This document shows, piece by piece, positions 24,237 to 49,577 of a DNA stretch of 64,000 nt. Numbering within the stretch: the first letter of the stretch is position 1; every line of letters begins with the position of its first letter. The DNA lies in the NCBI GenBank assembly GCA_038727135.1, contig JAVYWL010000002.1, forward strand, positions 7,186 to 71,185, read 5' to 3'. Under the pieces are notes generated by a model. It made no database searches. It was not told the origin of the DNA and saw nothing but the letters and a program-made list of their open reading frames with translations. Both the position numbers and the translations under genes were made by a program. Source of the DNA: Candidatus Bathyarchaeia archaeon. GTDB taxonomy: Archaea > Thermoproteota > Bathyarchaeia > Bathyarchaeales > Bathycorpusculaceae.

Positions 24237-24325
24237 AGTTTAAACCCTCGGCAAGCAAACCTTTAAAGCTAAATTTATAAAAGCGTTATCAAATCCATAT
24301 CACACGATAAATACGGAAGTAAAAG

Positions 24326-24430
24326 GGGCCCGTAGCTCAGTAAGGTAGAGCGGCGGACCAAACCGCTGCGCGGGGTGGGTTGAGGCTCTTAACCCGTAGG
24401 TCCCGGGTTCAATTCCCGGCGGGCCCGCCA
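24326..24430 (+). tRNA. tRNA-Lys(CUU) with a 28-nt intron at 24357..24384 (after tRNA position 30) and encoded CCA
   Basis: Acceptor GGGCCCG/CGGGCCC, D arm GCTC/GAGC, T arm CCGGG-TTCAATT-CCCGG. Spliced anticodon arm is GCGGG-CTCTTAA-CCCGT. A hand-folded hBHBh' motif places both cuts (see findings). Confidence 0.75.
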
Positions 24431-38613: not shown

Positions 38614-40035
38614 TTAAGCTCCTCCCCTTCTCTTAATAATGCTTATAATTTTAGCTTTTACATCCTTTGAGAGCGGAAGAACTTGATGCTCTTTTAATAT
38701 TTTCTCGGCTTCTTCCTTAGCTTTAACCCATAAATCCCTAGCCCCCGATTTGACCCAAATGTCTGGAAAAGTCCTATCAGTTATTTTCGGTATCCAAATC
38801 TCCCTTCTGAAGTGTTCAAGGGTGTGGCGCTCTTTTATGAAGCTGCCTTTGGGTCCAACATTCTTGATAACGTCAAATGCTAGGGTTTCATCTGTGATTT
38901 CGAAGCCGCCTACAAGTTTCTTTATCATACTGACAATCTCATTGTCTATGATGAGCCCTTCCAGGCTCATGGTGTTTTCTGAGGCGATTAAACCCATTCC
39001 GCATATTAGGTTAAGACCAGCAAGGGCTGGAAGTACACCTGTTAAAGCCTTTTCATATCCCATCTGAGCGTCCAGAGATTTGGAGTCTGTTAAAACACCG
39101 CCGCCAGCGCTTGGAATACCGTAATAATGCGCCATGTTGGCAACGCATGAGTGTAGCAGGGCAAATTCTGGTCCTCCAAGCACGGCTGAAGCTTGTCTCA
39201 CATCCATGGCCCTTGCCCAACTCCCAATGACGAGCGGAGCGTTCTTGTTAACCACATAACGAATCACTAAGGCACTTATGAACTCAGCCATGTTTAGGGC
39301 TAGAGTTCCAGCCAAAGTCACTGGACTTGTCGCCCCAGCCATGGGACCAGAGTTCACAAAAACCGGGATGCCAAGTTTGCAAGCTTCAACAAAAGCTTCA
39401 AGGGTAGCCCTATCATAAGTAAGTGGACTCGTTATAGATATCAGCAAAAGCATTATCGGTTTTTTCCTCAACTCCTCAACTCCGCCAACAATAGTTGAAG
39501 CCATTTCAATGGCGTCTTGGGCGCCTTCCTTCCGCATAGCCTCATTAATTATTGGTTTACTTGTGTTTTCGAAGGCTGTTGCCCACATGTACCTATCCAC
39601 AATCTCATGGGGCACATCCATTGGAGAGCCCATACACATGTAAAACTCAACATTATCTAAGGCGTCGGCAATTCTCGTTGCATTCGCCAAGTCTTGAACT
39701 GTAACCCTCCTATAAGTTCTTGACGCGGCATCATAGAAGTTAGTTGCAAAACCCACGGTGCCGAAACGGGTTTCATCCCCGCCCAGAGTCCTCCTCGTTT
39801 TCAAGTCTCTATGGTAAACGCTAAATCTATGGGGTGTCTTCTGCAGAGCGTCCTCAGCAAGATAATGTGGAATAAACGCTCGCTGACTTTTATGATCAAC
39901 CTCAGCGCCCGCCTCCTCAAGCTTTTGAAGAACTTCTTCATAGGGAATTATAACGCCGACCTCTTGAAGGATATCCAAACTTGTCAGATGCACAGCGTAC
40001 CTTTGTCTCTTGGAAAGTAAATTAGGGTAGTACAT
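38614..40035 (-). CDS. MttB-superfamily methyltransferase, non-pyrrolysine (paralog 3)
   Basis: 473 aa, uninterrupted. FIPHYLAEDAL, GPKGSFIKERHT. 1-nt spacing to corrinoid gene 2. Confidence 0.85.
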   Translation of the reverse strand: MYYPNLLSKRQRYAVHLTSLDILQEVGVIIPYEEVLQKLEEAGAEVDHKSQRAFIPHYLAEDALQKTPHRFSVYHRDLKTRRTLGGDETRFGTVGFATNFYDAASRTYRRVTVQDLANATRIADALDNVEFYMCMGSPMDVPHEIVDRYMWATAFENTSKPIINEAMRKEGAQDAIEMASTIVGGVEELRKKPIMLLLISITSPLTYDRATLEAFVEACKLGIPVFVNSGPMAGATSPVTLAGTLALNMAEFISALVIRYVVNKNAPLVIGSWARAMDVRQASAVLGGPEFALLHSCVANMAHYYGIPSAGGGVLTDSKSLDAQMGYEKALTGVLPALAGLNLICGMGLIASENTMSLEGLIIDNEIVSMIKKLVGGFEITDETLAFDVIKNVGPKGSFIKERHTLEHFRREIWIPKITDRTFPDIWVKSGARDLWVKAKEEAEKILKEHQVLPLSKDVKAKIISIIKRRGGA

Positions 40036-49500: not shown

Positions 49501-49577
49501 GGCCGAGGTGAGGTAGCCTGGAAGCCTACGGGCCTGTGGAGCCCGGCGCTCGGGTTCAAATCCCGGCTTCGGCCCCA
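49501..49577 (+). tRNA. tRNA-His(GUG) with genomically encoded G-1, C73 discriminator and CCA
   Basis: Acceptor GCCGAGG/CTTCGGC, anticodon arm CGGGC-CTGTGGA-GCCCG, T loop TTCAAAT. An extra 5' G at 49501 lies opposite C73. Confidence 0.9.

Follow-up and report, generated by a model that had tools for sequence, protein, structure and literature searches.

Among the closest known counterparts of the gene reported here are the split tRNA-Lys(CUU) genes of Nanoarchaeum equitans, Staphylothermus marinus and S. hellenicus, whose halves are joined between tRNA positions 30 and 31 via an hBHBh' motif (Chan et al. 2011, PMC3218864). Position 30/31 also figures among the known non-canonical sites of tRNA introns, and such off-site introns are associated with the two-subunit type of splicing endonuclease (PMC4090602). 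Cleavage by the archaeal endonuclease EndA falls between the second and third bulge residue (PMC4307357), and a loop specific to crenarchaeal EndA has been linked to a broad substrate range (PMC12397907). A literature search found no paper on a 30/31 intron of tRNA-Lys(CUU) specifically in Bathyarchaeia ('30/31' is itself unsearchable as a term).

A gene interrupted at this site lies in the genome of a Candidatus Bathyarchaeia archaeon, within a stretch of 64,000 nucleotides (hereafter the window, to which coordinates refer unless a contig is named). Like the known off-site introns (PMC4090602), its intron is short, predicted to be protein-spliced, placed outside 37/38 and flanked by two 3-nt bulges 4 bp apart, in a host with a probable two-subunit endonuclease; unlike them, it is hosted by a Bathyarchaeia MAG and not by a cultivated crenarchaeon, and its central helix holds two G-U pairs where the Thermoprotei genes found have G-C. 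[quoted passage not shown] The split genes, for their part, are separate loci kilobases apart that are joined in trans via a long leader-trailer duplex, whereas the Bathyarchaeia gene is contiguous and carries a 28-nt intron in cis.

The explanation that we hold with high confidence is that this locus, beside which no other tRNA-Lys(CUU) gene was found in the assembly, gives rise, from a conserved promoter of the TATA type, to a precursor with a 28-nt protein-spliced intron at 30/31. Its observed part consists of the gene, the motif with its conservation and covariation, and the enzyme genes.

The tRNA-Lys(CUU) gene and its surroundings

The host assembly comprises 1.55 Mb in 7 contigs, with 44% G+C. 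The tRNA-Lys(CUU) gene corresponds to window positions 24326-24430 (+), where coordinates and base pairs were re-read in the sequence, and it occupies a 342-nt gap between a tetrapyrrole-methylase-family gene on one side and, on the other, a small ORF followed by a receiver-domain gene. The Rfam model RF00005 matches 24326-24427 (+) at 53.5 bits, with 37 nt in place of the nine anticodon-arm positions of the model. Deletion of 24357-24384 yields a 77-nt tRNA-Lys(CUU) cloverleaf with an encoded CCA and the anticodon arm GCGGG-CUCUUAA-CCCGU, to which ARAGORN gives a score of 123.2. The gene is made up as follows:

24265..24285 (+): putative BRE/TATA element AAAGCTAAATTTATAAAAGCG, with the TATA core TTTATAAA (24274-24281) standing 45-52 nt before the mature 5' end
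24326..24356 (+): 5' exon, tRNA nt 1-30 (acceptor 5' strand, D arm, nt 26 and anticodon-stem nt 27-30), from the Rfam alignment and from ARAGORN on the spliced sequence
24357..24384 (+): intron ACCAAACCGCUGCGCGGGGUGGGUUGAG, 28 nt, between tRNA positions 30 and 31; its removal gives the best tRNA score (123.2)
24385..24427 (+): 3' exon, tRNA nt 31-73 (G31, loop CUCUUAA, 3' stem strand, variable loop, T arm, acceptor 3' strand and discriminator), from Rfam and ARAGORN
24388..24390 (+): anticodon CUU (Lys), from ARAGORN
24428..24430 (+): genome-encoded 3' CCA, read from the sequence; CCA is encoded in most orthologues

The original prediction of a tRNA-Lys(CUU) with a 28-nt intron and a 77-nt product including CCA is borne out by Rfam, by ARAGORN and by base-for-base reading. 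In its intron mode, ARAGORN reports a tRNA-Lys(ctt) spanning exactly 24326-24430 with a 28-nt intron; with default settings, it reports no tRNA at this locus. Since the gene is overlooked by default tRNA finders, the genome would seem to be without a tRNA-Lys(CUU): no other gene for this tRNA was found in the assembly, which is 94.7% complete, and 24326-24430 is the sole copy found. The element AAAGCTAAATTTATAAAAGCG, or a near-identical one, stands at the same distance upstream of most orthologous genes, and it probably acts as the promoter.

Two further features of the window were observed in passing. A tRNA-His(GUG) gene at 49502-49577 (+) has a nearly identical counterpart about 240 kb away on the same contig (C2:296167-296242). 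The Rfam model PYLIS_3 matches 38994-39093 at 57.4 bits, inside an ORF (38614-40035, -) that encodes an uninterrupted MttB-family protein of 473 aa (Pfam MTTB, 310 bits) and that has UUA at the UAG of the model. The UUA in place of UAG, together with the uninterrupted ORF, marks the protein as a non-pyrrolysine MttB homologue, and the PYLIS_3 match probably reflects similarity of the coding sequence.

The hBHBh' motif and the 30/31 junction

A complete hBHBh' motif had been drawn across the intron borders in the original prediction, and each of its coordinates and pairs is present in the sequence:

24347..24350 (+): 5' strand AGAG of the outer helix h, tRNA nt 21-24 (in the cloverleaf, the last of the D loop and the D-stem 3' strand), pairing with 24386-24389
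24386..24389 (+): 3' strand CUCU of the outer helix h, tRNA nt 32-35, two of which are the first bases of the anticodon
24351..24354 (+): exon strand CGGC of the 4-bp central helix H, tRNA nt 25-28, pairing with 24379-24382
24379..24382 (+): central helix H, intron strand GUUG, forming two G-U pairs with CGGC
24355..24357 (+): 5' bulge GGA, cut predicted at 24356/24357 from motif geometry
24383..24385 (+): 3' bulge AGG, cut predicted at 24384/24385 from motif geometry
24358..24378 (+): inner helix h', CCA (24358-60) with UGG (24376-78), which closes a small intron hairpin, CCGC (24363-66)/GCGG (24370-73), from a constrained fold

Counted from the borders, exon positions -6 to -3 (CGGC) pair at all four positions with intron positions -6 to -3 (GUUG). 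The outer helix has 4 bp and the inner helix 3 bp (up to 7 bp in relatives), where the strict definition of hBHBh' asks for at least 2 bp in each. The two 3-nt bulges are 4 bp apart, and cuts after the second nucleotide of each coincide exactly with the exon-intron borders, so that the published cleavage rule (PMC4307357) reproduces the 30/31 junction.

The motif alone is not rare: in 10 kb of the window, the strict form was counted 8-12 times on each strand, or about once per kb by chance, and its shape by itself thus proves nothing. When the intron was shuffled at the fixed junction, just 0.15% of the shuffled sequences gave a 4/4 central helix together with an inner helix of at least 3 bp. 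It is the comparative evidence that is decisive for the motif.

Orthologues were searched for in 60 genomes of relatives that belong to the host's genus, family and order, 32 of which hold a full-length precursor including the intron, and two more a precursor with an added 37/38 intron. Across the 29 distinct orthologous sequences that were compared, the exons are almost invariant, while the introns (19-36 nt) vary freely at the same junction. The central helix is fully paired in 29/29: its intron strand reads GUUG, GUCG, GCUG or GCCG, its exon strand varies once (CGAC), and all of these pair. The inner helix occurs as CCA/UGG, CUAACC/GGUUAG, CUGACC/GGUCGG, CUAGCU/AGCUAG and CUGGUC/GACUAG, with five of its six pairs changed on both sides among orthologues. 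The 3' bulge may read AAG or AAA in relatives, its third base tracking nt 39. Covariation was counted on an alignment of 28 sequences, in which 95.8% of the cells are paired, against 21-55% with the partners slid, and in which the covariation score is 0.247, against a shuffle mean of 0.104 (none of 500 shuffles scored as high). The changes in the central helix are one-sided and compatible in this alignment (G-U to G-C or A-U, with 100% of the cells paired), and the outer helix is invariant in all 28 sequences; as both of its strands are exon and never vary, covariation neither supports nor contradicts it.

On every point tested here, 24357-24384 is confirmed as a predicted protein-spliced tRNA intron of the BHB type at a non-canonical position, in a host that encodes both a splicing endonuclease and the RtcB ligase. 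The locus might otherwise be read as a decaying, non-functional pseudogene with an insertion that is never removed, a reading which the failure of default tRNA finders to report the gene would suit. This is scarcely credible in view of the absence of a second Lys(CUU) gene among those found in the assembly, of exons that stay nearly invariant across 29 distinct orthologues while the intron varies and covaries, of the conservation of both the promoter and the encoded CCA, and of the presence of the splicing enzymes in the genome.

The exact position of the intron is settled by the anticodon stem. The first base of the second exon (nt 31) and nt 39 form G-C in most orthologues and A-U in two of them (L114 and L115), a covariation that fixes the junction at 30/31. 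ARAGORN agrees with the original prediction on the anticodon and places the intron one base later, at the stem-loop border 31/32 (its -i output reads 'gcgga-Intron-ctctt'). This placement might draw on the intron-less relatives, which have GCGGA-CUCUUAA, the first intron base A resembling their ancestral A31. Yet ARAGORN confines its introns to the loop, and the mature tRNA that would result opposes A31 to C39, a mismatch that scores 118.5 instead of 123.2. Furthermore, an intron at 31/32 fits no bulge-helix-bulge register, and it is the base following the 3' cut with which nt 39 changes (G with C, A with U), the A that follows the 5' cut being invariant, all of which makes this position highly improbable. 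No other register of the motif works, as a one-base shift, although it would preserve the mature sequence, sets two G residues against each other in the central helix. The non-canonical 30/31 site of the original prediction therefore stands, on the covariation of nt 31 with nt 39 and on the better tRNA score.

Splicing enzymes, precursor folding and other off-site introns

Two EndA paralogues are encoded in the genome (185 and 186 aa, with PF01974 matches of 104 and 91 bits), each with N- and C-terminal endonuclease domains, together with RtcB (a 600-bit match). For the 185-aa protein, which keeps the Tyr/His/Lys triad, the nearest counterparts are the catalytic subunits of S. tokodaii (2CV8) and A. 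pernix (3P1Z_B). Its segment GIPKPKIPEF aligns with VEKPRGADF of A. pernix, K-P-K falling on the K44-P45-R46 loop, and carries the conserved Lys, the Pro/Val and the Lys/Arg of the crenarchaeal-specific insert (PMC12397907). The 186-aa protein is full length and has Thr where M. jannaschii EndA carries the catalytic His. A full triad is present in only one of the two, as in an (alpha-beta)2 enzyme, and the paralogues probably form a heterotetramer. Inspection of the EndA type thus returned a loop-bearing, crenarchaeal-type catalytic subunit and a His-less paralogue, in line with the expectation that the off-site intron would go together with a particular endonuclease architecture. The relatives to which the EndA protein led are almost all labelled Candidatus Bathyarchaeia or Bathyarchaeota, and many come from hot-spring samples.

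Cutting, ligation and the quaternary structure of the enzyme are proposed here by analogy with established archaeal tRNA splicing. The precursor would take a bulge-helix-bulge form, in which nt 21-28 of the first exon contribute to both the outer helix, formed with nt 32-35 of the second, and the central helix, formed with the end of the intron. The splicing endonuclease would thus be offered two 3-nt bulges with 4 bp between them. A heterotetramer-type EndA, combining the loop-bearing catalytic subunit with the His-less, putatively structural paralogue, would cut after the second nucleotide of each bulge, and RtcB would ligate G30 to G31, allowing the anticodon stem GCGGG/CCCGU to form.

The motif is absent from the unconstrained RNA fold, that is, from the minimum-energy structure of the precursor. 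[quoted passage not shown] The motif conformer requires the D stem to open, an energy cost that is inherent to the 30/31 site because any strict motif there borrows nt 21-25 from the D arm. As the outer helix and the first central pair both demand this opening, and as the full motif is about 6 kcal/mol costlier than the cloverleaf-compatible fold at 37 C, the enzyme might instead be presented with a relaxed substrate that has the same cut sites, in which the D arm stays folded and AGAG/CUCU never forms, leaving both bulges, the inner helix and a central helix of 3 bp. The outer helix is without covariation support, and relaxed motifs are cut by EndA carrying the crenarchaeal loop (PMC12397907; PMC4307357). 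Such a substrate nevertheless seems unlikely, given that all orthologues and all other lineages examined can form the full 4+4 bp pairing, that the full-motif fold is no worse than the cloverleaf-compatible one at 75 C (-11.5 against -10.5), and that the drawings published for the junctions of Staphylothermus and Nanoarchaeum show a canonical hBHBh' (PMC3218864). The complete hBHBh' motif is retained as the preferred form of the substrate.

The minimum-energy fold is dominated by a different pairing, in which the 3' end of the intron, GGGUUGAG, can form 8 bp with CUUAACCC, from the anticodon loop and the 3' strand of the stem, within 24377-24395 (+) of the window. It is made possible by the fact that most Bathyarchaeia keep GUUG, with its two G-U pairs, where Thermoprotei have GCCG. 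This hairpin can form in 22 of the 29 orthologues and was rejected as a conserved structure, the remaining 7 breaking it by changes that keep or improve the central helix.

The tRNA-Lys(CUU) intron is one of several off-site introns in this genome. When the long tRNA candidates of the genome were scanned with the strict motif, tRNA-Lys(CUU) was the one gene resolved, the remainder needing relaxed criteria, and the intron positions of the following genes were worked out by hand from their sequences:

C3:63018-63199 (-): tRNA-Tyr(GUA), 182 nt, with at least two introns, the first at 30/31 (31 nt, 4/4 central helix, 9-bp inner helix)
C1:574239-574348 (-): tRNA-Arg(CCG), anticodon stem interrupted in its 5' strand by a 31-nt intron at 29/30
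C1:573813-573921 (+): tRNA-Gly(UCC), 31-nt intron at about 29/30, with a relaxed motif (3/4 central helix, no inner helix at the border)
C1:62606-62706 (+): tRNA-Arg(UCU), D-arm intron of 23 nt, a good tRNA only once this is removed
C3:65498-65604 (+): tRNA-Val(CAC), D-arm intron of 29 nt, a good tRNA only once this is removed

In tRNA-Tyr(GUA), the second intron is a long one near 37/38; about 83 nt remain under the best two-intron model, and a third intron is possible in this candidate. The Gly(UCC) and Arg(CCG) genes are neighbours on C1. Comparison by eye of the Lys intron with those of tRNA-Tyr, tRNA-Arg(CCG) and tRNA-Gly(UCC), for signs of intron transposition, found no likeness beyond forced positions. 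In Euryarchaeota, there are tRNA-Trp introns that bear a guide RNA with box C and box D; the tRNA-Trp(CCA) gene of this genome (C1:99136-99309, +) has a long canonical intron of at least 67 nt with AUGAAGA and CUGA, which are box C- and box D-like, and a second intron is likely in this gene.

The 30/31 break in related archaea

Intron-less tRNA-Lys(CUU) genes (GCGGA-CUCUUAA-UCCGU) occur in at least nine genomes of the same family or order (L124-L132). Among order-level relatives, a 37/38 intron is found alone in two genomes (L116 and L117) and together with the 30/31 intron in two others (L118 and L119). Four layouts of the gene are seen within one Bathyarchaeia order. This pattern of presence and absence indicates that the intron comes and goes at the family level. 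In the intron-less genes, nt 31 and nt 39 form A-U, and elsewhere the first intron base is almost always A, so that the 5' border still reads like the intron-less GCGGAC. The usefulness of the intron as a taxonomic marker, which the original prediction had put forward, turns out to be weak, as the intron is common to several Thermoproteota classes and is missing from several genera of the same family; its value is limited to indicating 'Thermoproteota-type tRNA processing'.

In a scan for GAGGCTCTTAACCCG across one genome per prokaryote species, the same junction was recovered in tRNA-Lys(CUU) genes labelled Sulfolobales, Desulfurococcales/-aceae, Zestosphaera, Infirmifilum and Methanomethylicota. 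The Bathyarchaeia gene is identical to these cis-intron genes in its exon junctions, in the bulges GGA and AGG, in AGAG/CUCU and in CGGC. By contrast, the introns of Thermoprotei and Methanomethylicota (13-41 nt) have mostly GCCG as the central strand and a different inner sequence, and they share no sequence similarity with the Bathyarchaeia introns beyond the positions that the motif forces. The intron at 30/31 is therefore an ordinary example of a known feature that is widespread in related archaea, neither special to this genome nor new in kind.

The split genes break at the same place. In a Staphylothermus MAG (L217), the two halves of tRNA-Lys(CUU) are 3.6 kb apart, the trailer of the 5' half being complementary to the leader of the 3' half, and their edges (GCGG/A... 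and ...GAG/GCUCUUAA) are identical to the exon edges of the Bathyarchaeia gene. For 24326-24430 itself, a split gene was rejected, as both exons are contiguous with one upstream promoter. Halves of the 3' type, bordered in the same way (...GAG/GCUCUUAA) and preceded by a promoter box of the TTTAATAATCC type, were also observed in four Desulfurococcales MAGs (L224, L232, L237 and L246) and in a Thermoprotei MAG (L238), with no 5' exon within 110 nt or anywhere in the 4-8 kb examined. These five may be further split tRNA-Lys(CUU) genes beyond Staphylothermus.

Why would the same tRNA be broken at the same nucleotide in so many lineages? We give roughly even odds to an account in which the break at 30/31 is either a single, very old intron, in place before Thermoprotei, Methanomethylicia and Bathyarchaeia diverged, or a hard-wired hot spot. 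Half of the recognition motif comes from the exons, since A21-G24 of the common GAGC D stem are complementary to C32-U35 of the CUU anticodon loop, and C25-C28 (CGGC) need just a GYYG tract in the intron. That half of the motif is built into the exons may be what makes the break recurrent across classes. If so, it would account for the repeated occurrence of cis introns and split genes at 30/31 in Bathyarchaeia, Sulfolobales, Desulfurococcales, Thermofilaceae, Methanomethylicota and Nanoarchaeota, and the cis intron would be the natural precursor of the split genes.

For the enzymology of tRNA splicing, the link between off-site introns and a two-subunit, loop-bearing endonuclease fits this genome, and would now reach a hot-spring lineage of Bathyarchaeia. 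For the evolution of tRNA genes, the same break in the same tRNA across several classes, with split genes among them, provides a good data set with which to ask if split genes arose from cis introns.
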